The notes: generated from the sequence alone by a model not told the origin. 35,913 bases of DNA from an uncultured Actinomycetes bacterium (GCA_964509215.1 CAZDXK010000001.1:1-35913), one strand, 5' to 3'; numbered from the stretch's first letter, positions 956-35,913 are shown. Made by a program: numbers and translations.

Positions 956-1278
956 GGGAGGCGCTCCCAGACGCGCTGCGCGCCCTTGTGTCGAGTGACG
1001 GCGCGGCTCTCGACGAGGCCCGACGCAGACGATCCAGCCGACGTTCCGAGCGCAGTGGAACACCGATCCCATAGCCGGTGAGCGCCCGTGCTCGGAGCGG
1101 ATATCGTCGGCAGAGATGCGAGCACCGACGGGAAGCTGCCAGATCAGCTCAAGCGCACGCTCAGTCCATTCAGGATCGTTGCATGGGACTCAATTGACCT
1201 GCTGAGCCAACGACCTACCCCCAGCCCACGACGATGCAGGAATCGCCCCGGGGCTAAGGTCGCGGTCAGCGCCCCGTC

Positions 1279-1857
1279 CTAGGCCCGGACGAATCGGGCG
1301 GAACCAAGAACGGGCGCGATGAGCGTCTCGTTCCCGTCTGTCCACTTGACCCGGTAGCTCACGCTCAAGTCGCCGTGGATGACTTGAAGAATTTCCCCCT
1401 CGCGGGGTTGGGAGCCAACCTTGGGGGATTCGATGACGATGAGGTCGCCTCGCTTGGCTGGCATCGTCGTCGCGAGTGTGCGAGTTGCCGGCGTCGCGGT
1501 CTGCCCAGATGCCCTTGCGCCTCGGAGTGCAGGTCGTTTGGCCTGAGACGCGATTGGAGCTGAGCGACTCGCCGTGGCCCTCCTCGCTGTCGCCTTCTTG
1601 GCGATCGTCTTCTTCGCCATGACCTTCTTCGCGCTCTTCTTCCTGCCGGTGACCTTCCTCGCGACGGGCTTCTTGGCAATCGTCTTCTTGGCAGTCGTCT
1701 TGGCCGTGGTCTTCCTCGCAGTGGTCTTCCTCGGATTTGTCTTGCCAGGGGTCCTCCTCGCCGCGACCTTCCGGGCCGTCGACTTCTTCGCGCTGACCTT
1801 CCTTGCCGTCATCTTCTTGGTCGTTGTCTTCTTGGCAGTGGTCTTGTTCGCTGGCAC
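1279..1857 (-). CDS. Lys/Thr/Ala-rich basic (histone-H1-like) N-terminal tail fused to a DUF1918-like C-terminal domain
   Basis: 192-aa ORF. GTG start at 1857 is preceded by AGGAGGGG. The N-terminal ~100 aa are TAKK/TARK/AKK-type repeats. The C-terminus GDLIVIESPKVGSQPREGEILQVIHGDLSVSYRVKWTDGNETLIAP fits my recollection of the DUF1918 consensus (GDxLVI...R.GxI.EV...Y.VRW.DG.E...P). Confidence 0.75.
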   Translation of the reverse strand: MPANKTTAKKTTTKKMTARKVSAKKSTARKVAARRTPGKTNPRKTTARKTTAKTTAKKTIAKKPVARKVTGRKKSAKKVMAKKTIAKKATARRATASRSAPIASQAKRPALRGARASGQTATPATRTLATTMPAKRGDLIVIESPKVGSQPREGEILQVIHGDLSVSYRVKWTDGNETLIAPVLGSARFVRA

Positions 1858-2040
1858 GGTTCCCCTCCTGGCGCTAACAGCCGCATCGAGAGACTACTCC
1901 CCTTGGTACTCCTCGAAGCATGCTCGGGGCGGTCGGGAGTAGGTGAGTCCTGTCCTGAACGCCTCGTTCCGAGCGGTGCCATGCTGCCCGTCGAACTGAG
2001 CCAGGTAGGATCAGGCCGAGAAGGCGACAAGAGGCTCTTA

Positions 2041-2433
2041 TTAAGATCCTTCACGGTGTGAAACCAGCACCTAGGACGGATCGACCTGCGCACTAACCCT
2101 AGCCCCGATGTTCACGGCCAGGCCGCCGATCTTGCCGTTATGGTCGTGACTTCCCCGGTGTGGAGACCTGTTCGGTGACGGGAAGGCTCGACATCTTCTG
2201 ATCCACCCGTCTGACGAGCTCGCGGAGATCGTCGGCGACGTAGGTGGGACGCACCTCCGACGCCGCGAGCTCCTCCTTGGTCGACACCCCGTCAGCACGA
2301 GCAGGGAGTCCCAGCCGTCGTGGGAGTGACTTCGTATGCGTCCCACTGAGCCGGGCTGCGCTTGGCGCCGGTACGCTGGCGTCCGACACCATCCCTGGAA
2401 GTTGGTGAAGATTACCCAACTGCGCGACCTCAA
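2041..2433 (-). pseudogene. decayed class III adenylate/guanylate cyclase catalytic domain
   Basis: Frame 2071..2433 reads SWVIFTNFQG...GWDSLLVLTG...GKIGGLAVNIGARVSAQVDPS. An in-frame TAG (2073-2071) follows, then VLVSHREGS and TAA (2043-2041). This matches the cyclase motifs FTDIxG / GD / xAVNxAARV...GEVLVS, but with degenerate metal-binding positions (FTN, GWD) and premature stops. Only a TTG start is available, in the same frame directly after the ATPase stop. Confidence 0.45.
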
Positions 2434-2442
2434 TTTCCGGCC

Positions 2443-3408
2443 TCAAACGCCCAGCACATCCTCCGCACGGTGGCAGGACACGGTTCGGCCCGGTTCGACT
2501 TCCCGCAGCTGCGGCACCTCGACCCGACAACGGTCGACCGCGAGCTTGCACCGCGGATGGAAGGGGCACCCGAGTGGCGGGTCGGCTGGATCGGGGACGT
2601 TGCCCGGCAGCACCACGCGCGACCGGCGTGCCGCCAGATCGATCTCTGGTACTGCCGACCTGAGCGCCACCGTGTACGGGTGCGCCGGCCGGGCCAGCAC
2701 TTCCTCCGTCGGCCCCTGCTCCACGATCTTCCCGAGGTATAGGACCGCGGTCTCCTCGCAGAGCTGCTCCACAACCGCAAGGTTGTGGGACACGAGCACG
2801 TAGGCGAGCCCGCGTTCCTTGCGCAGCTTCCCGATCAGCTCGAGGATCCGCGCCTGCACGGTCACGTCGAGCGCGCTCGTCGGCTCGTCCAGCACCAGCA
2901 CCCGCGGCTCCACCGATAGGGCGCGGGCGATCGCGACTCGCTGGCGCTGCCCGCCTGATAGCTGATGTGGGTACCGCCCCGCGAAACCATCCGCCAGCCC
3001 CACCTCGGCCAACAGCGACTCAACCCTTCCCGGGATGTCCGCCTTGGGCACGATCCCGTGCGCGCGCAGCGGCTCTGCCACCGCCGCGCCGATCCGCACA
3101 CGTGGGTCCAGGCTCGTCGTCGGATCCTGGAACACGATCTGCACGGTTCGCCGGTACGCGCGCAGCTCACCGCCGCGCAGGCGCAGCACGTCCTGCCCCC
3201 CCAGCCGGATCGAGCCTCCCTCGGCATGAACCAGCCGCAGGAGCGCGCGAGCGATGGTCGTCTTGCCCGACCCACTCTCCCCCACGAGCCCGAGCCCGAA
3301 CGGGCCAATCGGCAACGAGAACGACACCCCGTCCACGGCGCGCACAAGCCCGAACCGGACATGAAGGTCCTCGACCTCCAGGAGCGGGGCGCCGGCGCTA
3401 TCGGTCAT
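2443..3408 (-). CDS. ABC transporter ATP-binding protein, oligopeptide/dipeptide (OppF/DppF-like)
   Basis: 321 aa. Walker A GESGSGKTT, signature LSGGQRQRVAIARAL, Walker B VLVLDEPTSALD, and a C-terminal Opp-type extension (HPYT...CPFHPRC). ATGA overlap with the upstream ATPase gene. Confidence 0.9.
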   Translation of the reverse strand: MTDSAGAPLLEVEDLHVRFGLVRAVDGVSFSLPIGPFGLGLVGESGSGKTTIARALLRLVHAEGGSIRLGGQDVLRLRGGELRAYRRTVQIVFQDPTTSLDPRVRIGAAVAEPLRAHGIVPKADIPGRVESLLAEVGLADGFAGRYPHQLSGGQRQRVAIARALSVEPRVLVLDEPTSALDVTVQARILELIGKLRKERGLAYVLVSHNLAVVEQLCEETAVLYLGKIVEQGPTEEVLARPAHPYTVALRSAVPEIDLAARRSRVVLPGNVPDPADPPLGCPFHPRCKLAVDRCRVEVPQLREVEPGRTVSCHRAEDVLGV

Positions 3409-4214
3409 CGAGGGCCCGGCCCCCCGATCCTGGGCACCGCCGCCACGAGCTCCCTCGTGTAGACGTGCCGCGGTTCGCCGAGCACCCGGGGCGTCGATCC
3501 TTCCTCGACGATCCGCCCCGCCCGCATCACCGCAAGGCGGTCGCAGAGCTCCGAGATCACCGCGAGGTCGTGGGTGATGAACAGCACGCTCATCCCCCGC
3601 TCGTCGCGGAGCCGGCGGAGCAGCTCCAGGATCTCGGCCTGCACCGTGACGTCGAGCGCGCTCGTGGGCTCGTCGGCGAGGAGCACCTCCGACCGGAGCG
3701 CGACCGCCATCGCGATGACCACACGCTGCGCCTGCCCACCGGAGAGCTGGTGGGGGTACCGCACCAGCAGCTCCGGTGAGAGCAGCACCGAGCGGAGCGC
3801 TTCGGCGGAGCGCTCGCGCGCCTGTTCACGGGAGGCGCCGTGCACCCGCAGCGTCCGCTCGAACAGCTCGCCCACACGGGTGAGCGGGTCGAGCGAGGCC
3901 ACCGGGCTCTGGAAGATCGCCGCAATGCGGCTGCCACGGATCTGGCGCAACCGATGCTCCGGGGCGCCGACGAGCTCCTCCCCGTCGAGCCGGATGCTCC
4001 CCTCGACCGTCGCCCCGAGCGTTCCGGCCAGCCCCAGCACGGCCAGCGACGTCATCGATTTCCCCGAGCCGCTCTCGCCGGCGAGTCCCAAGATCTCGCC
4101 GGCTCTCAGGTCGAGCCGCTCCAGCTCCACCACGCGTCGCTCGCCGAACCGGATCCGCAGGTCGCGCACTCCGAGCCGCGGTTCGCGTGCGGCTGTTGGC
4201 GTCGCGTCGCTCAT
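3405..4214 (-). CDS. ABC transporter ATP-binding protein, oligopeptide/dipeptide (OppD/DppD-like)
   Basis: Start set at ATG 4214 (MSDATPTAAREPRLGV...). Walker A GESGSGKS, LSGGQAQRVVIAMAV, LLADEPTSALD. The longer track ORF (to 5057) runs out of frame through the permease gene. ATGA overlap with the permease stop at 4211. Confidence 0.9.
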   Translation of the reverse strand: MSDATPTAAREPRLGVRDLRIRFGERRVVELERLDLRAGEILGLAGESGSGKSMTSLAVLGLAGTLGATVEGSIRLDGEELVGAPEHRLRQIRGSRIAAIFQSPVASLDPLTRVGELFERTLRVHGASREQARERSAEALRSVLLSPELLVRYPHQLSGGQAQRVVIAMAVALRSEVLLADEPTSALDVTVQAEILELLRRLRDERGMSVLFITHDLAVISELCDRLAVMRAGRIVEEGSTPRVLGEPRHVYTRELVAAVPRIGGPGPR

Positions 4215-5140
4215 CGCGACAGTACCCGCCTCGGGTCCAGGATCTCCCGGAGCCCGTCGCCGAGCAGGTTGAACGCCACCGCGGTGAGGAAGATCGCCGC
4301 GCCCGGGAACGTCCCTAACCACCAGTGGGTGGTGAAGAATGACAGACCCTGACTCACCATGAGGCCCCAGTCCGGGGTGGGATCCTGCGCACCGAGCCCC
4401 AGGAACGACAACGCGGAAGCCGTCAGGATCACGCCACCCACGTCCGACGAAACCTGGACGATCACCGGGGTGATGGAGTTCGGCAGGATGTGCCGCAAGA
4501 GGATCCGGCGGTGCGGGATGCCCAGGGCCCGAGCGCTTTCCACGAACGGGCGCCCAGCAACCGAAGCGGCCTGCCCGCGAACGAGCCGCGTGTACCAGGG
4601 CCACCAGGTGATCGCGATGGCAATCACCGTCGTGCCGAGCGAGGGCGTGAGGACCGCCGCGAACGCGAGCGCCAGAAGCAAGGCCGGAAAAGCCAGGAAC
4701 ACGTCGGTCACTCGCATGATGGTCTCGTCCACGATCCCACCGAAGTAGCCGGCTACGGTCCCGAGCGGCACGCCGACCACGGTCGAGATCACCAGCACCA
4801 GCACCGCGATCGTCGGTGAGATGCGAGCGCCGTAGATCACGCGCGACAGGACGTCCCTCCCCACCTGATCCGTGCCGAACGGATGCTGGAGCGAGGGCGA
4901 GAGCAGGATCTGGCTCGGGTGTGTGGCGCTTCCCGCGTCCTCCGGGAACGGCGCGAGCAATGGCGCGAGCAACGCCACCAGGACGATCAGCAGGGATAGC
5001 CCGGCGCCCCACGCGAGGAGCGGGTTCCGCCGGAATCCCGCGACGACGTCCCGCCACCGTCCGGGCGGTCTCGGCTCCGCACCTCGTTCCTCGATAACGG
5101 CGACCGCGCCGTCGTGGGCTCGTACCGGTTCGTCGGCCAT
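4211..5140 (-). CDS. ABC transporter permease (DppC/OppC-like)
   Basis: Start set at ATG 5140 (MADEPVRAHDG...). Multiple hydrophobic helices and a conserved loop ESARALGIPHRRILLRHILPN. 1-nt TGATG overlap with the upstream permease stop. Confidence 0.85.
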   Translation of the reverse strand: MADEPVRAHDGAVAVIEERGAEPRPPGRWRDVVAGFRRNPLLAWGAGLSLLIVLVALLAPLLAPFPEDAGSATHPSQILLSPSLQHPFGTDQVGRDVLSRVIYGARISPTIAVLVLVISTVVGVPLGTVAGYFGGIVDETIMRVTDVFLAFPALLLALAFAAVLTPSLGTTVIAIAITWWPWYTRLVRGQAASVAGRPFVESARALGIPHRRILLRHILPNSITPVIVQVSSDVGGVILTASALSFLGLGAQDPTPDWGLMVSQGLSFFTTHWWLGTFPGAAIFLTAVAFNLLGDGLREILDPRRVLSR

Positions 5141-6156
5141 CAGCTCAGCCGGATCCTCGGGTCGATGAGAGCCTGGATCACGTCGACCAGCGTGTTCCCC
5201 ACGACGTAGACGATTGCCACGAAGAGCGTCACGCCGACGATCGCCGGGGTATCGAGTGCCGACACGGCGTCGGCCGCGTAGCTTCCGAGGCCCGGTCGGT
5301 TGAAGATCGCCTCGACCAGGAAGGCGTTCACGATCGAGTACGCGAAGACGAGTGCGAGGATCGCCAACACCGGGTTCCACACATGTCGGAGGGCGAATCG
5401 CCCGAACACGCTCCGCTCGGAGAATCCCAGCGCGCGAACCATGCGGATGTGGTCCTCCCCGACCGTGTCGAGGACGGAGGCCCGGACCATCCTCGTGATC
5501 ACACCGAAGGGATAGGCCGCGATCACGACGGCCGGGAGGACGAGGTGCTGGAGGGTGCTCCAGAGCACCGGCCAGTTCCCGGTGATCAGCGAGTCGATCA
5601 CCGGCATGTTGGTGATGCTCCGGAGCGGACTCGTGTAGTCGAGGTCCGGGGCGTAGGTCCCCGCCACCGGCAACACCCGGAGCCACTGGAAGAACACGAG
5701 CTGGAGGATCAGCGCCAACCAGAACGAGGGCATGGACACTCCGAACACCGCGCCCAGGCGCGCGAGGAAGTCGGGGGCACGTCCCTTCCACCGCGCCGAC
5801 ACCAGCCCCAGTGGGACACCGACCACCAGGGCAAGGATCAATGCGGCGGCCACCAGCTCGATCGTCGCCGGCGCCCTCCGGGCGATGTCGGTGAGCACGG
5901 GGCGACGCGTCCGGAGCGACACCCCCCAGTCGCCTGAGGCGACCCCTCCGAGGTAGGCCACGATCTGAACGGGCATCGGTCGGTCGAGCCCGAGCTCATC
6001 GCGCGCTTGCTTCACCTGCTCGGGGCGGGCGCGCGGGCCCGCCCATGTGGCCGCCGGGTCGCCCGGGACCACGCGGGCGATCACGAACGTCAGGACCACC
6101 ACCCCCACCACCACGAGCGCGGCGAGAGCGACGCGACGGACGAGGTAGCGGCTCAC
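5140..6156 (-). CDS. ABC transporter permease (DppB/OppB-like)
   Basis: 338 aa, MSRYLVRRVALAALVVVG...GDP... typical N-terminus, multi-span membrane protein. GTGA overlap with the SBP stop (6153-6156). Confidence 0.9.
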   Translation of the reverse strand: MSRYLVRRVALAALVVVGVVVLTFVIARVVPGDPAATWAGPRARPEQVKQARDELGLDRPMPVQIVAYLGGVASGDWGVSLRTRRPVLTDIARRAPATIELVAAALILALVVGVPLGLVSARWKGRAPDFLARLGAVFGVSMPSFWLALILQLVFFQWLRVLPVAGTYAPDLDYTSPLRSITNMPVIDSLITGNWPVLWSTLQHLVLPAVVIAAYPFGVITRMVRASVLDTVGEDHIRMVRALGFSERSVFGRFALRHVWNPVLAILALVFAYSIVNAFLVEAIFNRPGLGSYAADAVSALDTPAIVGVTLFVAIVYVVGNTLVDVIQALIDPRIRLS

Positions 6157-7766
6157 GCCGCCGGCGTCAGCTCATAGCCGAAGACCACGTTCGGGTAGGC
6201 GGGGTCGTCCACGAACCCCTGCACCGAATCGAGCATCGCCCGCTGGTATACCTGCGTGTACAGGGGGATCGCCGGGTCGTCCTCGTACAGCGTCTCCTGC
6301 ATCCGAACGTACATCTGGCTCGCCGCATCACGATCGGTGGCCGCGACCACCGAGGCCTCGTCGATCTGCGCGTCGAGCTCCGGGTTCGAGTAGTAGGACA
6401 GATTGAAGAACGGCTCCTGCTCGGTGCGGAACAGGTTGAAGAACCACGACACCGGGTCGGGATAATCCGGCCACCAATAGAAGATGAAGATGTCCTGGCG
6501 CTCGGCGGGGTTCGCCGACTTCCCTTTGTCCCACTGCGTCTGCCATTGGTACCCGCGAACTTGCAGATCGACGTTCAGGTCGGCGAGGTTCGACTTCATG
6601 AGGGTCGCCACGGTCTCCTCGTCGGCGTCGCCCTTCAGGTAGGTGAGCTCGAGCTTGAGCGGCTGGCCGCCGGGGCCGTAGCCCGCCTCCGCGAGAAGCT
6701 CGGTGGCGAAGGCCTGGTCGTACTCGTAGCCGGAGAGGTCATCGGAGTGGCCCCAGAGCCCCGGTGGGATGACGCCCACGAGCGGGTCGGCCGCGCCCTG
6801 GAGGGCCTGGATGATTCCGTCGTAGTCGATCCCGTACGCGATCGCCTCGCGCACGCGGTCGTCGGCGAGCGGACCGTCACTCGTGTTCAGCAGCCCGAAA
6901 AGCGTCTGCCACGAAGGTGCGGTCGTCGTCTCGAATCCTTCCTGGCCCTCGAACGATGCCCACAGCTGCGGACTCATCCGCTGGACCATCGTGACCTCGC
7001 CGGCACGAAGCAGCTGCGCGGCGGTGGACGCTTCCGGCGTCACGCGGAACACGTAACGCTCGTAGTGGTCGCCGTCCCATCCCCCCCAGTAGTCGGGGTA
7101 AGCCTCCATCCGAAGCTCGATCTCCTCGCCGGGATTGAACTCAGTGGCGGTGTACGGGCCGGTGCCGGCGTCGTTCCCCTCCGCGAACCACTCCCCGAGG
7201 TCGGCCCCGCCCGCGGCCTCCGTGTCGTAGATGAACGCGGAGTACGTGCCGGACGCCACCAGGTCGAGCGGCGACGGGTACGCCAACTTGAACACGAGCG
7301 TCCGCTCGTCCGGCGTCTGGATCTTCTTGACGGCCCCCCAGATGTACGCGGCACCCTGCCCGAGCTCCATCGTCCGTTCGATCGCCGCCTTCGCAGCCTC
7401 GGCGGTGAGCGCGCGTCCCGAGTGGAATGTCACGCCGTCGCGCAGCGAGAAGGTCCACGTGAGGCCGTCGGCTGAGGGCTCCCAGCTCTCCGCGAGCAGC
7501 GGCTCCACTTGCTGGGTCGCCGAGTCGTATCGCGTGAGGGTTTCGTAGAGGTTGTGCATCGCGATGACCTCGTTCGAGTACCCCGTTGCGGGGTCCCAGC
7601 CGATCATGACCTCGGAGGTCACCGAGTAGGTGAACGTCTGCGGCCCGGCCTGCCCGGACGGCTGCGGACTGGGACCCTCACCCCCCGCGCCCTCGCAGGC
7701 CACGGCAACCAGCGCCAGCACCGCCAGCGCCGCGATACAGCGTTCCCGGATCCGGATCATCGCCAT
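6153..7766 (-). CDS. ABC transporter substrate-binding protein, family 5 (peptide/nickel/opine type), probable lipoprotein
   Basis: 537 aa. Signal-like N-terminus ...IAALAVLALVAVAC followed by a Gly/Pro/Ser linker. Family-5 SBP-like body. SD GGGAGGGG lies directly upstream of ATG 7766. Confidence 0.9.
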   Translation of the reverse strand: MAMIRIRERCIAALAVLALVAVACEGAGGEGPSPQPSGQAGPQTFTYSVTSEVMIGWDPATGYSNEVIAMHNLYETLTRYDSATQQVEPLLAESWEPSADGLTWTFSLRDGVTFHSGRALTAEAAKAAIERTMELGQGAAYIWGAVKKIQTPDERTLVFKLAYPSPLDLVASGTYSAFIYDTEAAGGADLGEWFAEGNDAGTGPYTATEFNPGEEIELRMEAYPDYWGGWDGDHYERYVFRVTPEASTAAQLLRAGEVTMVQRMSPQLWASFEGQEGFETTTAPSWQTLFGLLNTSDGPLADDRVREAIAYGIDYDGIIQALQGAADPLVGVIPPGLWGHSDDLSGYEYDQAFATELLAEAGYGPGGQPLKLELTYLKGDADEETVATLMKSNLADLNVDLQVRGYQWQTQWDKGKSANPAERQDIFIFYWWPDYPDPVSWFFNLFRTEQEPFFNLSYYSNPELDAQIDEASVVAATDRDAASQMYVRMQETLYEDDPAIPLYTQVYQRAMLDSVQGFVDDPAYPNVVFGYELTPAA

Positions 7767-7791
7767 CCCCTCCCTCGGGTTGCGCAGCGGG

Positions 7792-14143: not shown

Positions 14144-14275
14144 GGCGTACTTATATCGCCCCTGAAGCGTCTCGGGCCACTCGAGGGGGATGCATGCCCG
14201 GAATCCCCTAGGGCGCAGAAGGCCAATGTACCGAAAAGGTGCTCTGGCCGAGAAGCGAGCGTCGCCTACTCTTCT

Positions 14276-14308
14276 GTCGCCGTCATCCTTCGGGATGACG
14301 GCGGCGAC
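14276..14308 (-). terminator. stem-loop downstream of the DUF1059-like gene (candidate tail-less intrinsic terminator or RNA-processing site)
   Basis: GTCGCCGTCATCC-TTCG-GGATGACGGCGGCGAC: 11 perfect bp closing a 4-nt loop, extendable with a 3-nt bulge. About 20 nt after the stop at 14325. No U-tract. Confidence 0.35.
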
Positions 14309-14324
14309 CTACCACTATTCGGCG

Positions 14325-15457: not shown

Positions 15458-15521
15458 CACGCATGGAGGTGTGGCCGAGCGACGCTGACGATCGACGGCG
15501 ACCCAAATTGCGGAGGTGGAG

Positions 15522-15908: not shown

Positions 15909-15954
15909 CCGTCCCTCGATCTACGGGAGTCAATCTGCGCCTACAGCCGATCCT

Positions 15955-16002: not shown

Positions 16003-16063
16003 GATGGGCCGCAGGTGTCTGAGCTGCACCTTCCCAGGTGAGGGACGAAGTCGACCGTCACAC

Positions 16064-20293: not shown

Positions 20294-20302
20294 TTTCCGG
20301 CC

Positions 20303-25626: not shown

Positions 25627-25651
25627 CCCCTCCCTCGGGTTGCGCAGCGGG

Positions 25652-27241: not shown

Positions 27242-28301
27242 GGATCTCCTCGACCGGCACGTAGTCCACGTCGTAGCCGAACGCGCGCGGGCCCGCGAGG
27301 TCCAGCCCGCGCACCGTCCGCCAGATCGGATCGCAGGGGAACGCGATCACGTGGACGCGTTGCCCGTACTTCAGCCGCTCGGTGGAGATCGCCTCGGCGC
27401 TCTCGGAATCCAGCACCGTGATGATGTCCGGCACGGTCGCGAGCAGCCGGCTGTCCTCGAGCGCGACGAGGTTCTCGTTCTGGATCTCGAGGCGAAGCGT
27501 GCGGCCGGCGTGTTCGCCGAGCCCCCCGATCGTGGCGGAGCCGCGGACGAACCCGGCGGTGGTGCGCCGCTCCACGTCGACGACCTTGCCGTTGATCAGC
27601 ACCGCAGCGCCCAACTCCTCGGTGAGCGCGGTGACCGGGTCGTGTTCCGCTTCGAGCACCACCGAGCCGATCCGGATGGCGAGGGAGAGGGACCGCCGGA
27701 CCGTGGCCGTCTTCGCCTGAGCCACGGTGAGCTGGTACTCCGACGAGGAGGCCATGCCGCCGAACTCCACCGCCGCCGCTCGCTCCATGCGCTCCATCCA
27801 CCCGCCGTCGATCGCGCGGAACACCGTGAGGTTTCCGCGCTCGTCGGTCATCACCGCCGGGTTCGGTGAGATCCCGGCCACCTCCATCGTGACCTGCGGC
27901 ACTTCGGGAAAGGCGCGTCCCATCCCGTCGGCGTCGACCACTGGGACGCCGGCGTGGGCCGCCCACACGACAGGGATCAACCCGTTCGACCCTCCGATCT
28001 CCGCGGCGAAGAACGCCACCACCGGACAGCCCCAGAGTCGCTCGACCTCCTCGCGGAGGCGAACGCCCTCCCGTCCGTTCTCGATCTTCTCGATCGAGAC
28101 GGTGGGCGCTCCGATGCCGCCGCACGGCATGAGGAGCGCGTCGTCGGGCAGGTCGTCGAGGTCCACCACGGGCACCGGCCCGTACTCCTCCACAGCCTGA
28201 AGCGCCATGAGCAGCCCGTAGTGGGTGTCGCCTCCTCCTCCGGCGCCGAGGATCGCGCACCCCCTCGCGAGGGCCGGGAGGTTCGACGAGTCAAGGCGCA
28301 C
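27228..28301 (-). CDS. DUF917-family protein, copy B
   Basis: Identical to 9368..10441. Confidence 0.8.
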   Translation of the reverse strand: MRLDSSNLPALARGCAILGAGGGGDTHYGLLMALQAVEEYGPVPVVDLDDLPDDALLMPCGGIGAPTVSIEKIENGREGVRLREEVERLWGCPVVAFFAAEIGGSNGLIPVVWAAHAGVPVVDADGMGRAFPEVPQVTMEVAGISPNPAVMTDERGNLTVFRAIDGGWMERMERAAAVEFGGMASSSEYQLTVAQAKTATVRRSLSLAIRIGSVVLEAEHDPVTALTEELGAAVLINGKVVDVERRTTAGFVRGSATIGGLGEHAGRTLRLEIQNENLVALEDSRLLATVPDIITVLDSESAEAISTERLKYGQRVHVIAFPCDPIWRTVRGLDLAGPRAFGYDVDYVPVEEIHGLG

Positions 28302-29949
28302 CGTAGACCTCGCGGGCCTCGCGCTCGGTGATGATCCCGTTGACGAGGTCTTCTGCAACGAGCTCCCGTTCACGCTCCCTCGGATCCCCGTGGCCGCCCC
28401 CGGTGCCCGTCACGAGCCGCACCAGGTCGCCGGTCCGAAGCGGCAACCTCGCGGCCTTCCCGAACCGACGCGGCGGCGAACCGTCGGCCGGCACGACCTC
28501 CACGTAGTTCACGGATCCTTCGCCGCCGCCGTCAACGCCCCAGGGTGGGAACCGATGGCGGCCGAACCCAACGGTGAGGCTGCCGTCGGTGAGGAGCCGG
28601 TACTCGCGGACCAGCCCCCGGCCGCCACGCCGGCGCCCGGCCCCGGCTCCCTCCACGATGTCGAGCCCGAATCGCTCCACGCGGATGCCGTAGCGCTGCT
28701 CGCAGACCTCTGCCGGGATCACATATGTCTCGCCGTCACCGACCGAGACGAGCCCGTGCTCTCCGTCCTTGAGGGCACTCGCGCCCCAGCCGCCAGCCTG
28801 CGGCTCGACGAGCAGCGTCGGCTCGCCCATGTCGGGATGCGTGCAGGCAACGGATGTCGCGCACACCGAGAGGAAGCTCCCGGCCGTGAGGACCTCCGGA
28901 AGCGCGGGCGCGAGCGCCTTCCACACGAGATCGGTGGCCGCCTCAGTGGCCTCGAAGTAGAGGGCGACAGGAGCCGGCCGCTCCGCCGTGAGCACCGTGC
29001 CCGGCGGGCAGACGATCTTGAACGGGCGGAACCATGCGTCGCTCGCGGCCTCGGTGGGATCGGTGATCGCCTTGAAGACCGTGCGGACTCCCGATACCAG
29101 CCCACTCCGTGTGCAGTTCACGGGCCCCTTCACCTGGGGGCTCGAGCCGGTGAAGTCGGCCACGACCCCGTCCTCGGAGATCTCGACGCGCACCCGGATC
29201 GGGATCGGTGTCGTGTCGAGACCGTCATCGTCGAGAAAGTCCTCGGCCTCCCAGACTCCGCGCGGTAGGCGGACGACCGCGGCGCGAGCCAGCTCCTCGC
29301 TCCGCCGGTGCGCCTCGGCCATCGCCTCGCGGATCGCTTCGATCCCGTGGCGGTCGCACAGTTCGAAGAAGCGACGCTCCGCGACCTCGAGGCACGCGGC
29401 GAACGCGTGGAGGTCGCCGAGTGTCTCGTCGGGGAGCCGGCAGTTCGCGGCGACGATGGCCGCGATGTCGCGAACGAGTTCGCCGCGGCGGTGGGTCTTC
29501 ACGAAGGGGAGCTGCAGGCCTTCCTGATAGATCTCGGTCGAGTCGGCCGTCCAAGAGCCCGGATCCTTGCCCCCCACCTCCGGCCAGTGGCCCTTCGCGC
29601 CGGCGAACGCGGCGAGTTCCCCATCCACGAAGATCGGCCGAACCATCGCGACGTCGGAGAGGTGTCCGCCGCCGCCCGAGTAGGGATCGTTCGTCGCAAC
29701 AACGTCGCCCGGCTCGAGGTCGGGGACCTTCACCATCGTGTCGCGCGCTACCTCGCCCAGCGGCCCGAGGAACCCGGCGATCCCGTTGCCTTGCGACACG
29801 AGCTCGCCGTCCGCGTCGGTCAGTCCGACGGCGAAGTCGAGCACCTCGTAGATCACGGGGCTCTGCGAAGTCCGCTGCAGCGACACGAACATCTCGTCGG
29901 TGACGGCCGAGAAGGCCTCGCGAAGGACGTCCATCGTGAATCGGTCCAT
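28291..29949 (-). CDS. hydantoinase B/oxoprolinase family protein (HyuB-like), copy B
   Basis: Identical to 10431..12089. Confidence 0.9.
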   Translation of the reverse strand: MDRFTMDVLREAFSAVTDEMFVSLQRTSQSPVIYEVLDFAVGLTDADGELVSQGNGIAGFLGPLGEVARDTMVKVPDLEPGDVVATNDPYSGGGGHLSDVAMVRPIFVDGELAAFAGAKGHWPEVGGKDPGSWTADSTEIYQEGLQLPFVKTHRRGELVRDIAAIVAANCRLPDETLGDLHAFAACLEVAERRFFELCDRHGIEAIREAMAEAHRRSEELARAAVVRLPRGVWEAEDFLDDDGLDTTPIPIRVRVEISEDGVVADFTGSSPQVKGPVNCTRSGLVSGVRTVFKAITDPTEAASDAWFRPFKIVCPPGTVLTAERPAPVALYFEATEAATDLVWKALAPALPEVLTAGSFLSVCATSVACTHPDMGEPTLLVEPQAGGWGASALKDGEHGLVSVGDGETYVIPAEVCEQRYGIRVERFGLDIVEGAGAGRRRGGRGLVREYRLLTDGSLTVGFGRHRFPPWGVDGGGEGSVNYVEVVPADGSPPRRFGKAARLPLRTGDLVRLVTGTGGGHGDPRERERELVAEDLVNGIITEREAREVYGAP

Positions 29950-32003
29950 CACGAAGCCTCCTCGATGACCAGGTTCCCCAGGTCGTCTACCTCGACGGTC
30001 TGTCCCGGAAGCACGAGCGTCGTCGCCGCAGGTTCCTCGACGACACACGGACCGTCGAGCCTCGTGGCCGTATCGAGCGCGCTGCGCTCCACCACCTCCG
30101 CTCTTCGGACGCCCCCGTGCTGGTCGAGATCGACGTCGCGTGGTCGGAGCGTGGGGGGCGCACCGGATCGGTGCGTCGTCCACGACAGGCGCTCTGCCGG
30201 TGCCGACACGCTCACACGAATGGCCACGATCTCCACCGGCGACGGCAAGCTGAACGCGTACGCCTCTTCGGAGGCTCGGTCGAAGTCACTCCGCAACATG
30301 TCGAGCAGCGAGGCGTCCACCGCTCCCTCGCGAAGCGGCACCTCCAGCGTGTGCTCCTGCCCGACGTAGCGAAGGTGTGCGAACCGCTGGACATGTCGCG
30401 AGCCCGCCTCGTCCTCGATCTCTGCCGCCGCCTCACGCTCCAGCAGATCGAACAGCGGAGCGAGCGTGGCGGGGCTGAGTGCACCGACGTGGGTCCGGAT
30501 GGCGTCGGCACCGAAGTCTCCGAGCAGCATGCCCAGCGCCGAGAAGTGCCCGGGCGCGGGCGGGATCACCGTTCGACGGATGCCGAGCTCTCGGGCGAGC
30601 AGCGAGGCGTGGAGCGGGCCGGCGCCGCCGTAGGCCACGAACGTGAAGTCCCGGGGGTCGAGGCCGCGACGGACGGTGACCAGCCGAAGCGCGTGCGCCA
30701 TCTGCGCGACCGCGTATCGCAGAACCCCTCGAGCCGCCTCAGAACTATCGACACCGAGTTCCCCCCCGAGCTGCCGGAGCGCCTTGGACGCCGCCTCCAT
30801 GTCGAGCTGCATCGCTCCACCTAAGAAGTACTCGGGGTCGAGGCGCCCGGCCACGAGGTTCGCGTCGGTAACGGTGGGCTCCGTCCCGCCACGGCCGTAA
30901 CAAGCCGGACCGGGTTCGGCGCCTGAGCTTGTGGGTCCGACGTGGAGCCCGCCCGCGGCGTCGATCCATGCGATCGAACCACCGCCGGCGCCGATCTCCA
31001 TCACCTCTACCACCGGCACCTGGACGGGGTACCCGGCGAAGGTCGGCGTACGTGCGATGTGGTGAGACGTGTCGATCCTCACTCGGCCGCCGCGCACCGC
31101 CGACGTCTTCGCGGTCGTGCCGCCGATGTCAAGCGACAGCACGTCGGATGTGCCGAGTCGGCGCCCCAGCTCCGCGGCCGCCGTCACGCCGGCGACGGGC
31201 CCGGACTCGAGGAGCGAGATCGGCGAGGCGAGCGCACGCTCGAACGACGAGACACCGCCGCTCGAACGCATGGCGTACAAGGGACCGATCAGGCCCGCTT
31301 GCCGAAGACGGGCGGTGAGCCCACCGAGGTAGTTGGCGACCACGGGCTTCACGTATGCGGCGAGGACGGCGGTGCTGCTGCGCTCGTACTCGCGCCACTG
31401 CGAGCTCACATGGTGAGAAGCGACGACCTCGACCTCCGGGAGGAGTTTCCCGATCAACTCCGCGGCTCGCCGTTCGTGGTCGGGGTTCGTCCACGCATGG
31501 AGGAAGCACACCGCGACCGCTTCGACTCCCGCATCGCGGAGGGCAGGAGCGAGCGCCTCGACCTCGTCCTCGTTGAGAGGCACCAGCACCTCACCTCGAT
31601 GCGTGATCCGTTCGCTTACCTCGAAGCGAAGACGACGCGGGACGAACGGGCGAGGCTTCGCGTACGAAAGGTTGTACAGGTCGGGCCGATTGGCCCGACC
31701 GATCTCGAGCACGTCGCGAAAGCCCAGGGTCGTGACGAGCGCTGTGAGCGCGCCCTTGCGCTCGGTGATCGCGTTGATGACGGCGGTGGTGCCGTGGACG
31801 AACCCGCCGACCCAGGCTGGATCGACGCCCGAATGTTTAATCGCCTCGATCACCCCTTCGTCGAGCCGGCCCGAGGTGGTCGGAACTTTCGCCAGCACGA
31901 GGCGGCCTGTGTCCCCATCGACGCCGGCGAGATCGGTGAACGTGCCGCCGATATCGACCGCGAGGCGCTGTCCGGATCTCGCGGGAGCGGTGGGCACCGA
32001 CAC
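29949..32003 (-). CDS. hydantoinase A/oxoprolinase family protein (HyuA-like), copy B
   Basis: Identical to 12089..14143. Confidence 0.9.
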   Translation of the reverse strand: MSVPTAPARSGQRLAVDIGGTFTDLAGVDGDTGRLVLAKVPTTSGRLDEGVIEAIKHSGVDPAWVGGFVHGTTAVINAITERKGALTALVTTLGFRDVLEIGRANRPDLYNLSYAKPRPFVPRRLRFEVSERITHRGEVLVPLNEDEVEALAPALRDAGVEAVAVCFLHAWTNPDHERRAAELIGKLLPEVEVVASHHVSSQWREYERSSTAVLAAYVKPVVANYLGGLTARLRQAGLIGPLYAMRSSGGVSSFERALASPISLLESGPVAGVTAAAELGRRLGTSDVLSLDIGGTTAKTSAVRGGRVRIDTSHHIARTPTFAGYPVQVPVVEVMEIGAGGGSIAWIDAAGGLHVGPTSSGAEPGPACYGRGGTEPTVTDANLVAGRLDPEYFLGGAMQLDMEAASKALRQLGGELGVDSSEAARGVLRYAVAQMAHALRLVTVRRGLDPRDFTFVAYGGAGPLHASLLARELGIRRTVIPPAPGHFSALGMLLGDFGADAIRTHVGALSPATLAPLFDLLEREAAAEIEDEAGSRHVQRFAHLRYVGQEHTLEVPLREGAVDASLLDMLRSDFDRASEEAYAFSLPSPVEIVAIRVSVSAPAERLSWTTHRSGAPPTLRPRDVDLDQHGGVRRAEVVERSALDTATRLDGPCVVEEPAATTLVLPGQTVEVDDLGNLVIEEAS

Positions 32004-32135
32004 GGCGTACTTATATCGCCCCTGAAGCGTCTCGGGCCACTCGAGGGGGATGCATGCCCGGAATCCCCTAGGGCGCAGAAGGCCAATGTACCGAAAAGGT
32101 GCTCTGGCCGAGAAGCGAGCGTCGCCTACTCTTCT

Positions 32136-32168
32136 GTCGCCGTCATCCTTCGGGATGACGGCGGCGAC
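32136..32168 (-). terminator. stem-loop downstream of the DUF1059-like gene, copy B
   Basis: Identical to 14276..14308. Confidence 0.35.
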
Positions 32169-32184
32169 CTACCACTATTCGGCG

Positions 32185-32337
32185 CTACTCCTCTTTCGTG
32201 GTGGCCATGACCGCCTCGAAGTCGAGGTCCTCGCCCTGGTGGTGCTCCGCGACATGCTGCTCCGCTTTCGTCCTCAGCTCCTCCATCGTTTCGCCTCGTA
32301 CGGTCATCCCGTCGGCGCAGTCGATCCGGTAGCCCAC
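32185..32337 (-). CDS. small DUF1059-like protein, copy B
   Basis: Identical to 14325..14477. Confidence 0.5.
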   Translation of the reverse strand: MGYRIDCADGMTVRGETMEELRTKAEQHVAEHHQGEDLDFEAVMATTKEE

Positions 32338-32899
32338 GTTCGCCTCCTTCGTCGCTCCGACGACGAGCGTACCCCTCACAGCTACGTCTCGCAGACGCCC
32401 CGCCAGGGCTGACTCGGCTCGTCGGTCCGGCCAGCTTCGCGGTGCTCCTGGGGAATCGCAATGATGCGTTCGCATCAGCTCCCCGACCCAGGAAAACGCT
32501 CCGGTGCGCGCCAGTGCGACGACGTCACTCCAGGGCGAGAGGGCCCACGATTTCATGCGACTGTCCCAGGCCATTCACATCATGCATGCTCTCGGAGGAC
32601 GAGGGACCGGGAAGAGGTGAAGAGCAACGATGTACATCGACTCCGATTGCACCGGTGCCATGAAGTACGTCCGTGTGACGGACCCGACCGACAAGCGAAC
32701 CTGGGAGGTTTGGTGCGAGCCTGGTAACGCCAGCTGGCCCTCGCAATCCGAGAGTCCGGGGATAAGAGATGGGTCGTTCAGAGCCCCGATGGCGCTAAGG
32801 AACCGATCGACATGGTCGGCTTGACGAAAAGAAGTGCTCTTGGGCAGGCTGGCCGTACTGCTTGGCGGCGAAGACGCTGCACATGAGGTTCTCGAGCTC

Positions 32900-33317
32900 T
32901 TCGAACCCCTACGACTTGATAGCGAGGGCTGCATCAGTCCCGACGCTACGACCAAGTCCCTGCCGCTGAGGGCGCGGATCGGAACCTCCAACCTCACCGA
33001 CCTCGAGCACCGACTCCGCGCCGGAGATGCTCGCCGTGGGCCGGGAGCGCGCAGCCGACGCCGGCCTCGCCAACGTCGAGTTCGTTGCCCGCGACGCCGA
33101 GGAGCTCGAGTTCGACAGCCAGAGCTTCGACGCGGGGCTCAGCCGCGCCACCTCAATGTTCCTGCCGGACGTCGCAGGCGCGTTGAGCCCAGCAGCAAGG
33201 GCAACTGCCCCAGGCGGGCTTTCATTCAGGAGTCAGGCTTCCGGCCGGTCGTGTTGCAGTTGCGGCGCGGCCCCTTCAGGAGAAGGATTCGAGCGTGGAC
33301 TCCCAGATACCAACTAG
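32900..33317 (+). pseudogene. decayed SAM-dependent methyltransferase, copy B
   Basis: Identical to 15040..15457. Confidence 0.5.
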
Positions 33318-33381
33318 CACGCATGGAGGTGTGGCCGAGCGACGCTGACGATCGACGGCGACCCAAATTGCGGAGGTGGAG

Positions 33382-33768
33382 ATGGAGCCGGTCGGACAGC
33401 TCGGGTGGATCCAGGTTGACTGCCGAGATCCCGTAGCTCTTGCCACTTTCTGGGGGGTAGTGCTCGGCCTCCAGGTCGACGACGACTACCTCGGCGATCC
33501 ACCTCACTACGTGGGGCTTGCGGCGACGAACCCCGACCACCCCCAGGTGAACTTCCAGCGGGTCGCGGAGCCGAAGACCATGAAGAGCCCACTCCATTTC
33601 GACCTACGCGTGGACGACGTCGACAAGGCGACGGCCCGGATCGAGGCGCTGGGCGGCCTGCGGCTACAGGCAGAAGACGTCCACGAGTACGGCTACAACT
33701 GGCGTGTGATGGCCGATCCTGAGGGCAACGAGTTCTGTCTGATCTACGAGATTGCCGCAGCGTCCTAG
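33382..33768 (+). CDS. VOC-family protein, copy B
   Basis: Identical to 15522..15908. Confidence 0.8.
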   Translation: MEPVGQLGWIQVDCRDPVALATFWGVVLGLQVDDDYLGDPPHYVGLAATNPDHPQVNFQRVAEPKTMKSPLHFDLRVDDVDKATARIEALGGLRLQAEDVHEYGYNWRVMADPEGNEFCLIYEIAAAS

Positions 33769-33814
33769 CCGTCCCTCGATCTACGGGAGTCAATCTGCGC
33801 CTACAGCCGATCCT

Positions 33815-33862
33815 TGGTGGGCGCTAGAGGATTTGAAACTCTGACCTCTTCCGTGTCAGGGA
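33815..33862 (-). other. tRNA-Val(GAC) 3' fragment with CCA (degenerate), copy B
   Basis: Identical to 15955..16002. Confidence 0.8.
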
Positions 33863-34152
33863 GATGGGCCGCAGGTGTCTGAGCTGCACCTTCCCAGGTG
33901 AGGGACGAAGTCGACCGTCACACGAGTACCGGAGAGTACCGTTGGGTTCGGTCGGCTCCTTGACCAGGTGTTGACCAAACCAAGCGACCCAACGCCATCC
34001 AACTAGCTGCTAGTTCGACCCTCAGAGATCACCGGGACTGGGTGGGGTGGGCCCCTCGGGCGTGGCCGTTTCGTGGGCACGGGCGATCGCCTCGTGTCGA
34101 CTGGGGGGTCGTTGTGACAACTGTCCGGTCGACTCGACAACCCCGCGGCGAG

Positions 34153-35235
34153 CTAGATACCGAGTAGACCGAGCCGCTGCGCGAGGGCCGCCGCCTCCGC
34201 CCGCCGCTCCGCCCCCAGCTTCGCCAAGATGTTCGAGACGTGGGTCCCTACGGTCTTCGGGCTGATGAAGAGCTGATCCGCGATCTGCTTGTTCGTGCGC
34301 CCGGTCGCGACAAGCTGCAGGACTTCCAGCTCGCGCGCTGACAGACCAAGCTCGTCCGGACTCACGCGCCGCGAGCGGGTCTGCGGGCTCGGAGGCAGGG
34401 TGAGGAGGAACCTGCGTACCTCGTCCACGATCGCGTCCTGGTCGCCCACCCACATCAGGTGGTCCACTCCGGGGAGCTCGACGTAGCGAGCCCCCTTGAT
34501 CCCCTCCGCCAACGCGCGTCCCTGATGCACCGGAACGACCAGATCGCCGGTCCGATGAAGTACCAGGGTCGGTACTTCGATCCTGGGCAGCACGTCACCC
34601 CAATCGATCTGGTACCCCAGCTGCATCAGCGCACGAGCCGACCCGGGGCTCAGTCCCGACCGGGTGAGCCGCAGGTACGCGGCAGTCGTTCGCTCGTCGG
34701 CCAAGAGGTTCGGCGCCCAGAACGCCGCACCGACGCCTTCGGTGCCCCACTCGTTCTCGATCCTGTCGAGCGCCTCCTCCTCCGTGTTGGCCAGTCGGGA
34801 GAGCATGCCGGTCTCGGGCTCCAGCTTCGGGAACGTTCCGTACAGGATGAGTGCCACCGAGCGCTCGGGGTACGTGGCGGCGAACAGGCCGCACATCGCG
34901 CCACCTCCGAGCGTGCCGAACAGCACCGCGCGCTCGGAGCCGGCGGCGTCCATGACGACGCGGATGTCGTCCATGCGGTCGGGAAGGCTGGGGAGCCGGT
35001 CGGGGTCGACTCGATCCGATAGGCCCGTCCCGCGCTTGTCGAACAGGATCAGGCGCGAGAAGGAAGCGAGCCGCTCCAGGAAGCGTGCGAGCGGCGGGAC
35101 CTCCCATGCCAGGTCCAGATGCGTGACCCATCCCGGCGAGAGGATCAGATCGACGGATCCCTCGCCCAGCACCTGATACGCGATGTTGAGACCGCCGCTC
35201 TTTGCATACTTCGTCCGAGGCCTCACAAGCCACAC
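34153..35235 (-). CDS. Ser-less alpha/beta-hydrolase-fold / LuxR-HTH fusion, copy B
   Basis: Identical to 16293..17375. Confidence 0.85.
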   Translation of the reverse strand: MWLVRPRTKYAKSGGLNIAYQVLGEGSVDLILSPGWVTHLDLAWEVPPLARFLERLASFSRLILFDKRGTGLSDRVDPDRLPSLPDRMDDIRVVMDAAGSERAVLFGTLGGGAMCGLFAATYPERSVALILYGTFPKLEPETGMLSRLANTEEEALDRIENEWGTEGVGAAFWAPNLLADERTTAAYLRLTRSGLSPGSARALMQLGYQIDWGDVLPRIEVPTLVLHRTGDLVVPVHQGRALAEGIKGARYVELPGVDHLMWVGDQDAIVDEVRRFLLTLPPSPQTRSRRVSPDELGLSARELEVLQLVATGRTNKQIADQLFISPKTVGTHVSNILAKLGAERRAEAAALAQRLGLLGI

Positions 35236-35382
35236 CCTATGTCGGGTGCGAGGGACCGTACTCCGTCATGTTCCCTATGCCGGAATGCGGCGTCTTCCCG
35301 ATTGCGGTGCCGCAGAGCCGGACCCACGATGGCACGTGACGCGTCGTCGTGGATCGAGACCTATCGACAAGGAGGGATGGAT

Positions 35383-35610
35383 ATGCCGCTCATCAACGTG
35401 AAAGTGATCGAAGGCGTCTTCTCGGACGAGCAGAAGGGGGCGATCGTCCGAGGACTGACCGACGCCATGGTCGTGATCGAGGGCGAGAACATGCGGCCGG
35501 TCACGTGGTGCGTGATCGATGAGGTGCGCAGCGGTGACTGGGGCATCGGCGGCGATGCGCTGACGACCGACGCAGTGAAGAAGCTGGCAGCCGGCGTGCC
35601 GGTCGGCTGA
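35383..35610 (+). CDS. 4-OT-family tautomerase, copy B
   Basis: Identical to 17523..17750. Confidence 0.85.
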   Translation: MPLINVKVIEGVFSDEQKGAIVRGLTDAMVVIEGENMRPVTWCVIDEVRSGDWGIGGDALTTDAVKKLAAGVPVG

Positions 35611-35715
35611 TCGCTCGATACCCGTCCGAGCAAGCCTGGGCATCCCTCCCCGCGAGACCCGGAGCCCGGATCGAGGCACGAAGCTTCATCGAATCACCGG
35701 GTGCCACCACGGAAG

Positions 35716-35747
35716 GAAGCCCGGAGCCCCTTGTGGCTCCGGGCTTC
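35716..35747 (+). terminator. 13-bp GC hairpin, copy B
   Basis: Identical to 17856..17887. Confidence 0.4.
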
Positions 35748-35859
35748 TCATGCAGGGCTGACGTTCGTCGGATTCGACAGCACGCGGCAGGATACATCCA
35801 TGAGTCGCGTTTCTCGGCGCCTACTCACGTCCTTCATGACAGACCAACGGTTCTGCTTG

Positions 35860-35913
35860 TGGGCGCTAGAGGATTTGAACCTCTGACCTCTTCCGTGTCA
35901 GGGAAGCGCTCTC
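35860..35913 (-). tRNA. tRNA-Val (anticodon GAC), 3' 54 nt; the 5' part lies beyond the window end
   Basis: Minus-strand reading GAGAGCGC-TTCC-CTGACAC-GGAAG-AGGTC-AGAGG-TTCAAAT-CCTCT-AGCGCCC-A: anticodon stem-loop with GAC, 5-nt variable loop, perfect T-arm, acceptor 3' strand and discriminator A. CCA is not encoded (next bases CAAGCAG). Confidence 0.85.

Follow-up and report, generated by a model that had tools for sequence, protein, structure and literature searches.

RecA-dependent tandem duplication and amplification in bacteria have been described by Roth, Andersson and colleagues, and actinomycetes are known to carry AICEs, with pSAM2 and SLP1 as examples. Tyrosine recombinases that target tRNA genes classically use an identity block that begins at the anticodon stem and reaches the 3' end of the gene. 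Tandem accretion at tRNA genes and CIMEs have been reported for ICESt1/CIME in Streptococcus thermophilus and for the Streptomyces pathogenicity islands (PMC5704250). The window analysed here, a complete NCBI contig of 35,913 bp with no Ns, shows the order A-S-B-S-tRNA-Val, in which two copies of a segment S are separated by a spacer B and preceded by a flank A, and a 47-nt tRNA-Val 3' segment reaching from the anticodon stem as far as the 3' end, here termed T, closes each copy on the right (Table 1).

Like the described accretion arrays and CIMEs, the units appear to be placed head to tail downstream of one tRNA, with direct repeats from the tRNA 3' end between them, and the inner units keep att sites (relic generations T, T' and T*) and are devoid of integration and transfer genes. 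Unlike them, the stacked units share 16.9 kb at an apparent identity of 100%, instead of being different or decayed elements; no partner with a cognate integrase is present in the contig, and the putative array is here known from the metagenome contig sequence of an uncultured soil actinomycete. The unit of ≈18 kb, the actinomycete host and the identity block of ≈47 nt also recall the AICEs, from which the unit differs in that int/xis, Rep, FtsK-like Tra and Nudix/Kor are all absent.

The repeat and its tRNA-derived edge

The two copies of S, 1183-18045 (16,863 bp) and 19044-35905 (16,862 bp), were compared by offset and by alignment of their edges. They are offset by 17,860 bp (17,861 for the first 17 nt), and no difference was found by offset comparison between 1228-18045 and 19088-35905, over 16,818 bp. 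The only differences revealed by the edge alignment were one indel (an additional T at 1200) and one substitution (C1227 vs G19087), both confined to the first 45 nt, a clustering with P ≈ (45/16863)^2 = 7e-6 if they were random mutations occurring after duplication. Full alignment thus bore out the claim, made in a previous sequence-only reading of this DNA, of a 16.9-kb segment present in two near-identical direct copies, and the A-S-B-S-tRNA layout proposed there agreed with both coordinates and edge alignment. The same reading had held A to be unrelated to B, and indeed blastn found nothing in common between flank A (1-1182) and spacer B (18046-19043) past the repeat edge; the overlap of a circular contig was rightly excluded, the two contig ends having zero terminal overlap at any common k.

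Exact copies of T are found at 17999-18045 and 35859-35905, at the right edge of the repeat, and bound a 17,860-bp unit made of B and S. Near-copies of 46 nt, with one mismatch each, are located at 15957-16002 (T*) and 33817-33862; T* and the exact copy closing the first S (T') bracket a 2-kb module, termed alpha (16003-17998). The left edge of S shows no likeness to T (p ≈ 0.47), so that S alone is not att-flanked. The contig begins 1.2 kb to the left of the repeat and ends on the right inside the tRNA, where an Rfam tRNA match covers 35860-35913 (40.5 bits, model positions 18-71), the first 17 positions being past the contig end. A further tRNA-Val called by ARAGORN at 17999-18070 was rejected as a gene, since it scores 18.2 bits with Rfam, below the gathering score of 29, and has no D arm. 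Judging from the sequence, this call is the 47-nt 3' fragment plus unrelated sequence, an att-like pseudo-tRNA, and the copy at the contig end is the sole credible tRNA-Val in the window.

Table 1. Features of the window, with positions, strand and remarks.
Feature	Position	Strand	Remarks
Flank A	1-1182	minus	279-aa replication-like gene P0122 at 116-955, minus strand
Left edge of copy 1 (L1)	1183-1227		45 nt; T at 1200, C at 1227
Copy 1 of S, exact part	1228-18045	minus	main genes all on minus strand
DUF1918/HC2-like protein	1279-1857	minus	
Dpp/Opp-type ABC ATPases and permeases	2443-6156	minus	
SBP_bac_5 solute-binding protein	6153-7766	minus	
HyuA-like protein	7792-9381	minus	
S-Me-THD/DUF917 protein	9368-10513	minus	
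HyuB	10431-12323	minus	
HyuA	12089-14143	minus	
Gene-poor stretch	14.1-16.0 kb		methyltransferase fragment and VOC/glyoxalase gene
T*	15957-16002	minus	46-nt tRNA-Val 3' fragment, one mismatch to T; direct repeat D3, spacing 2042
LuxR-alpha/beta-hydrolase gene	16293-17375	minus	
Tautomerase gene	17523-17750	plus	
T'	17999-18045	minus	47-nt tRNA-Val 3' segment, right edge of copy 1; attR-like pseudo-tRNA when joined to B
Spacer B	18046-19043		998 bp, single copy in contig
tRNA-Ala(GGC) 3' fragment in B	18500-18545	minus	aligned to L092 tRNA-Ala over 47 nt with one gap, identity 91.5%
Left edge of copy 2 (L2)	19044-19087		without T insertion; G at 19087; Logan contig L001 carries exactly the same version
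Copy 2 of S	19088-35905	minus	identical to 1228-18045; own T* at 33817-33862
tRNA-Val(GAC) 3' 55 nt	35859-35913	minus	T (35859-35905) and 8 nt of D arm; cut by contig end

Cargo, flanks and relatives of the unit

According to the predicted proteins, the cargo of S consists of ordinary genes for nutrient uptake and breakdown, namely a hydantoinase/oxoprolinase-type operon and a Dpp/Opp-type ABC importer. No Phage_integrase, recombinase or transposase family was found in any of the ORFs tested in the S+B unit, the unit gave no PHROGs match, and no integrase remnant was retrieved by tblastn using the L092 integrase as query. No int/xis, replication, partition or transfer (FtsK-like Tra) gene was found in 18046-35905, and mobility genes are absent also from the alpha module between T* and T'.

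Only the operon (2448-14108) is conserved in relatives, and a tRNA scan of 60 relatives placed a tRNA-Val beside it in no case. Relatives also have the alpha module, at 92-97% identity, either in different contexts or interrupted; on such comparisons the locus is plastic, its context varying among close relatives. As a side observation, the sequence interrupting the alpha module of relatives seems, on inspection by eye, to be the end of a transposase gene of IS type.

The protein encoded by P0122 belongs to a rare family (16 homologues) and was found in its exact form on this contig only; it has no plasmid or phage relatives and is absent from all Logan contigs. A weak RepB_primase_C domain is present in its homologues, one of which (P0127) lies downstream, by ≈670 bp, of a tyrosine integrase adjoining tRNA-Ala(GGC), and another (P0125) between an HTH_17 gene and McrBC. 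The usual upstream partners of P0122, an xis-like gene and an integrase, are missing from A, cut away where the repeat starts on the left. P0122 is a replication-like gene of a family of small integrative elements, seen beside an integrase at tRNA-Ala and not at tRNA-Val. In spacer B, a 54-aa ORF with a ribosome-binding site (18247-18411, plus strand) was detected, and the spacer gave no family matches. It also shows a weak Rfam tRNA match at 18501-18565, and its tRNA-Ala fragment is a second att-like relic, with another tRNA specificity.

Assembly graph and proposed origin of a putative array

Both inner junctions are reproduced at 100% by Logan contigs of SRR6868923, which we take to have been built with k = 31: L084 corresponds to 17999-19019, across T|B, and L001 to 19011-20212, across B|S. 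On the evidence of these independent short-read contigs the two junctions are real, and a circle would show them just as a tandem array would. L001 crosses position 19088 unbranched, with no branch to the context of A; Logan contigs break at base 17999, the left end of T, and the Logan graphs show T with two or more left contexts. In the contig under study, the last 55 nt correspond exactly to T plus 8 nt (47+8 = 55) and the internal differences lie within 45 nt of unique flanks, contig ends and differences alike obeying k-mer logic. De Bruijn metagenome assembly with SPAdes-type path extension can traverse repeats and loops. The contig is most likely a single walk, A-S-B-S-tRNA, along a cyclic de Bruijn graph built from short reads at k = 55, and the two S copies are probably one collapsed edge printed twice. 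Like in a loop traversal, we have an entry edge, the repeat, a back-edge, the repeat again and an exit, with identical copies, differences within k of the flanks and an end falling 55 nt into the tRNA; the junctions, on the other hand, are real in independent assemblies, the assembler and its k being here inferred.

As S may be one edge written twice, its exact identity and its copy number of two are not to be trusted as measurements, and the previous claim that near-zero divergence implies a very recent event is unsafe, since a single collapsed edge could be printed twice. A mis-joined assembly had also been proposed. An assembly effect must still be reckoned with, the window being a whole contig that ends 55 nt into the tRNA, but the T|B and B|S junctions are real in independent contigs, thus making a false join unlikely to be the problem and a walk around a graph cycle likelier.

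With T on both sides and cargo only in its interior, the unit looks like a tRNA-integrated island without integrase, and it adjoins both tRNA-Val and a second copy of the same cargo with a different far end, A, as a tandem accretion-type array would. Our best explanation, to which we assign a probability of about 0.5, is indeed that the T-bounded 17,860-bp unit (B + S), with ends joined head to tail in the sampled population, is an att-flanked, integrase-less island belonging to such an array, of which the contig is a graph walk. The array would arise by recombination at the T repeats, either site-specific, with an integrase acting in trans, or RecA-mediated; a circle of [S+B] integrating at T into A-S-T-tRNA would give exactly the observed order and, as we infer, place both full S copies on one molecule. 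Either the T repeats or the 16.9-kb S copies could expand the array, collapse it or excise a circle, and physiologically this would alter the dosage of the hydantoinase/oxoprolinase-type catabolic operon and of the Dpp/Opp-type ABC importer.

Tandem tRNA-Val islands with different distal ends were already among the proposals of the sequence-only reading; they reproduce the layout with no extra events and are supported by the 47-nt repeats, but the repeated unit carries no integrase or mobility gene. Further relics of integration are found nearby, namely the tRNA-Ala fragment in B and the replication-like gene in A, with homologues that neighbour either an integrase at tRNA-Ala or an xis-like gene. 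On the other side, integrase, excisionase, replication and transfer genes are all lacking in the unit, and a cognate integrase, if any, would lie outside the contig; after a plain unequal crossover between two Ts, the left copy of S would be expected to have B on its left rather than A; at k = 55, the alpha-T-B link is backed by just 8 nt of alpha; and with an equimolar A-S-B-S-tRNA the Logan contigs should be interrupted at 19088 and where T ends on the right, but the breaks were seen at the left end of T.

A less likely but serious rival is that the contig is instead a chimera of strains or alleles, with one S per genome, in which co-occurring A-type and B-type tRNA-Val islands, the latter with T' as a relic beside it, were threaded into a pseudo-tandem through the S that they share and a short common sequence beside T. 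A whole metagenome contig ending a k-sized distance inside a tRNA, two differences both within k of unique flanks (where a graph assembler can keep them), the multiple left contexts of T in the Logan graphs and the many alternative contexts of the alpha module in near relatives would all fit such a chimera, and L001, unbranched at 19088, together with the lack of the A protein in any Logan contig, suggests unequal amounts of A|S and B|S. However, the native flank of T' should then share no fewer than its last 8 nt with alpha (a longer stretch if k > 55), the Logan break at the first base of T implies that the alternative left context diverges right beside T, and B runs unbranched for 1 kb, joined to T and to the start of S in independent contigs.

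More doubtful is the view of the island as a CIME-like, att-driven gene-dosage device, in which an integrase-less 17.9-kb catabolic unit of the Actinomycetota would, by means of its 47-nt tRNA-Val-derived repeats, amplify head to tail, excise as a circle and be mobilised in trans, with loop junctions outnumbering the chromosomal ones in the natural population.

A RecA-type tandem duplication or amplification of the 17,860-bp [S+B], giving A-S-B-S-B-... and possibly favoured because the hydantoinase/ABC importer operon gains in dosage, with the last 8 nt as a stray branch into another tRNA-Val, seems quite improbable. Bacteria frequently carry tandem duplications, which are unstable, and the locus resembles them in its big direct repeat of ordinary metabolic genes, in the potential dosage benefit, in the short repeats at the joins and in the instability and population heterogeneity to be expected. 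The dissimilarity of A and B is likewise expected from such an event, the sole contrary evidence being the 8 nt at the contig end, and L084 and L001 are unbroken over T|B and B|S, as though loop junctions dominate. Nevertheless, those 8 nt extend the tRNA model exactly, a graph with k = 55 requires reads with 56-mers made of the alpha tail, T and the same 8 bases, and one recent event would not be expected to leave two differences clustered at the left edge. As assembled, the layout also does not appear to be P-U-U-Q, as B is in single copy and the left flank is unrelated to it, and the join falls at a tRNA-derived att-like segment rather than at an IS element, an rRNA operon or a microhomology. 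A simple head-to-tail duplication had been rejected by the earlier reader, in agreement with B occurring once and with the tRNA, not B, following copy 2, but this rejection depends entirely on the 8 nt with which the contig ends; a selection-driven amplification of the operon, suggested as well, is possible.

Least credible of all is a free circular S+B molecule of 17.86 kb (plasmid or excised island), merged by the assembler with a chromosomal A-S-tRNA-Val: it would give the same graph cycle, loop junctions seem dominant over entry and exit junctions in SRR6868923 and ≈17.86 kb falls in the size range of actinomycete integrative elements, but S+B has no replication, partition, integrase or transfer gene, the replication-like gene is in A, outside the cycle, and its protein is without plasmid or phage relatives.

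Implications for genome scans and for the operon

In genome scans, a single graph edge written out two times can lie behind a long perfect repeat in a metagenome contig built from short reads; this caution is strongest where the contig ends one k-mer length into a tRNA, and dating such duplications by divergence is unsafe without read depth. The locus itself belongs to a well-known type, the tandem island or duplication, and its biology is ordinary. If real, it would be another natural case in which att-flanked cargo islands stack up or are amplified at a tRNA gene, doubling an operon for cyclic amide uptake and hydrolysis that is widespread in soil actinomycetes, thus a useful, if unsurprising, case study.

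Structure of the repeat and its tRNA-derived edges

Base-by-base comparison at an offset of 17,860 aligned 16,818 bp (1228–18045 and 19088–35905) without any mismatch. Similarity reaches leftward to 1183 and 19044, where the copies differ by an extra T at 1200 and by a substitution (C1227 vs. G19087); with one indel and one substitution, both at the left edge, the full alignment agreed with the repeat coordinates proposed in the sequence-only reading, as it did with the 998-bp spacer (B, 18046–19043) separating the two copies of the repeated segment (S). The left flank (A, 1–1182) and B had been described as unrelated and, indeed, blastn gave no match between them past a 48-nt edge; a circular-contig overlap, discounted by the same reading, was ruled out by the absence of shared ends at k = 21–141. 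Both differences fall within the first 45 nt of the 16,863-nt repeat, an arrangement having a chance of ~7e-6 under random post-duplication mutation, so that this edge is either an older, pre-existing homology or mosaic boundary, or the sole site where an assembler could keep differences.

On its right, the repeat ends in 47 nt (T) that match tRNA-Val(GAC) between the 5' strand of the anticodon stem and the 3' terminus. Where the window ends on the right, 8 more nt after T continue the tRNA (Rfam 40.5 bits for 35860–35913, model positions 18–71, cut by the sequence end). Past the mid-window copy (T') the sequence is unrelated; ARAGORN nevertheless calls a tRNA-Val at 17999–18070, which lacks the D arm, scores 18.2 bits against an Rfam gathering score of 29, and is a pseudo-tRNA of attR type. 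A further near-copy (T*) lies inside the repeat, which is therefore itself composite, consisting of beta (1228–15956), T*, alpha (16003–17998) and T; T* and the 47-nt copy, 2,042 bp apart, bracket a 2-kb module with the tautomerase and LuxR-hydrolase genes. As an att-like relic, the tRNA-Ala fragment in B marks a second integrase specificity at this locus. A degenerate tRNA-Val fragment as the left boundary of S was rejected, its alignment to T being no better than that of shuffled sequences (p ~0.47). A strong, terminator-like hairpin (17851–17892, GAAGCCCGGAGCC...GGCTCCGGGCTTC) separates the tautomerase gene from T, and another strong one (18059–18095, CTGAGCAGG-N17-CCTGCTCAG) begins in B, 13 nt past T'.

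Features of the repeat, the spacer and the left flank
Feature	Position	Strand	Description
DUF1918 protein	1279–1857 and 19139–19717		HC2-like, lysine/alanine-rich N-terminus
Dpp/Opp-type ABC importer	in repeat		two ATPases, permeases, SBP_bac_5 binding protein
Hydantoinase-type set	in repeat		two HyuA-like proteins, one HyuB, one S-Me-THD/DUF917 protein
Gene-poor stretch	in repeat		methyltransferase fragment, VOC/glyoxalase gene
LuxR-alpha/beta-hydrolase regulator; tautomerase	in repeat
T*	15957–16002 and 33817–33862		46-nt tRNA-Val 3' fragment, one mismatch
tRNA-Ala(GGC) 3' fragment	18500–18545 (in B)	minus	47-nt alignment, 91.5% identity to full tRNA-Ala of contig L092
Flank A family, window	116–955	minus
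Flank A family locus, contig L092	8086–10861
Flank A family locus, contig L093	2046–3374

Cargo of the repeat and origin of the left flank

According to family searches of its ORFs, the repeat codes for cargo alone. Pfam detected in it none of the integrase, transposase, replication, partition or transfer families, PHROGs gave zero phage matches, and tblastn with the integrase of a related element (L092) retrieved no integrase remnant; hidden integrase, phage or conjugation genes were thus discarded, all 30 ORFs being negative in the Pfam and PHROGs scans and tblastn likewise. The N-terminus of the DUF1918 protein is long, histone H1/HC2-like and coded by imperfect 15-nt-spaced repeats (families D1 and D2). 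The stretch 14144–16000 is gene-poor, with a GC content of ~0.64 vs. 0.70 in the operon, a truncated methyltransferase ORF (15167–15457) and overlapping family-less ORFs; lying between the operon and T*, it resembles DNA in decay.

The 279-aa protein encoded in flank A belongs to a rare family (16 homologues); it had no match among plasmids or phages, nor in a second metagenome scan. A weak RepB_primase_C signature was detected in its homologues; a tyrosine integrase adjoining a full tRNA-Ala(GGC) lies ~670 bp upstream of one of them, and another has an HTH_17 (xis-like) gene before it and McrBC after it. Given this company, A is an incomplete remnant of a small integrative element, which the left boundary of the repeat severs directly upstream of the replication-like gene. 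The family appears to represent a hitherto undescribed, replication-like module found in small integrative elements of soil Actinomycetota; the attR of the L092 element was looked for and not found.

Junctions and contig ends

Independently assembled short-read contigs (Logan, SRR6868923) matched 17999–19019, that is T|B with nearly all of B, and 19011–20212, the B|S junction with the left-edge variants of the second copy, both at 100%. This support covers the T|B and B|S junctions. B is thus truly attached to T at one end and to the left end of S at the other, so a mis-joined assembly in its plain form, one of the explanations offered by the sequence-only reading, is unlikely. Logan contigs are built at k = 31; T (47 nt) exceeds this length and they therefore cannot tell alpha from another sequence preceding T'-B.

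Both matching contigs run unbroken through 18045/18046, where the tRNA would branch, and 19087/19088, where A would branch, and the break falls at the left end of T. An equimolar A-S-B-S-tRNA predicts the opposite pattern, which suggests that loop junctions outnumber entry and exit junctions in those runs, or that strains are mixed. In SRR6868922 and SRR6868923 the contigs break at the first base of T, L089 ending at 18028 (one base of alpha plus 30 nt of T) and L084 starting at 17999.

A single NCBI contig, of 35,913 bp, is on record for the exact LuxR-hydrolase protein, so the window is an entire contig; its final 55 nt consist precisely of T (47 nt) and the 8 nt of tRNA. The default top k of metaSPAdes is 55, and a k = 55 de Bruijn contig meeting shared sequence stops at the first k-mer wholly inside the shared part; such an end is what a k = 55 assembler yields on entering a tRNA shared with other contexts. 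A 16.9-kb exact repeat is not resolvable from reads by a short-read assembler, and a simple graph loop (A to S, S to B, B to S, S to tRNA) can be emitted as entry, repeat, back edge, repeat and exit. If, as we infer, the two copies of S are one collapsed edge printed twice, zero divergence and a copy number of two would reflect how the sequence is represented.

Relatives and possible histories of the locus

The best matches among GTDB species representatives were uncultured soil Actinomycetota at 78–79% amino-acid identity, none being closer, in which the ABC-hydantoinase operon (2448–14108) alone is conserved; in the 60 related loci scanned for tRNAs, none had a tRNA-Val beside the operon. 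The alpha module was found at 97% identity in Logan contigs (L087, L088 and L090), diverging from window position 17931. By eye, the sequence beyond this point resembles the 3'-terminal part of an IS-type (rve-like) transposase gene; such an insertion would separate the tautomerase terminator from the tRNA fragment. At 92% identity, alpha also occurs in an ENA contig of wholly different context, where 13 nt of T remain. The varied contexts of alpha, together with the lack of tRNA-Val beside the operon in relatives, indicate a highly plastic neighbourhood and a tRNA-Val association specific to this contig. Exact-protein look-ups returned short Logan contigs (SRR6868922, SRR6868923) and 92–97% relatives and nothing else, and the junction 29-mer was absent from JGI metagenome contigs and IMG/VR. 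The metagenome-assembled genome JBOGWD01 holds two diverged ABC-hydantoinase operon copies on separate contigs (L006 and L007; 76–77% amino-acid identity to the window), hence multiple copies or strain mixtures of the operon may be common.

We favour, at a probability of about one half, a tRNA-Val island without an integrase, arrayed head to tail (or present as the corresponding circle) through recombination at the 47-nt repeat and written as a graph walk. A circle of S and B carrying T, by integrating at T into A-S-T-tRNA, would give exactly the observed order; equivalently, two related islands with a common S and differing distal ends, A-type and B-type, could stand in tandem at the tRNA. 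Tandem tRNA-Val islands of this kind had been proposed from inspection of the window, and they do reproduce the order, although the unit has no integrase. In accretion arrays of ICEs, IMEs and CIMEs, site-specific recombination stacks elements that no longer have integrase and transfer genes but retain their att sites (PMC5704250 and references therein), the same pattern as the A-S-B-S-tRNA layout here. By its structure, the unit 18046–35905 falls within the definition of a cis-mobilizable relic (CIME); lacking an integrase, it is neither an autonomous island nor an AICE.

A chimera of strains or alleles, each genome carrying one S, is a serious rival but less likely. Simple tandem amplification, the contig end being stray, is improbable: a P-U-U-Q duplication would yield A-S-B-S-tRNA only if the final 8 nt were spurious; for U = S+B one expects B after the second S. 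A free circle accompanied by a chromosomal copy receives the least weight. Unequal exchange between T copies predicts B to the left of the first copy, where A stands.

All four readings are known kinds of event, and the genes and architecture are mechanistically nothing new. The main value of the locus is methodological: long identical repeats in short-read metagenome contigs need confirmation by read depth before being read in evolutionary terms.
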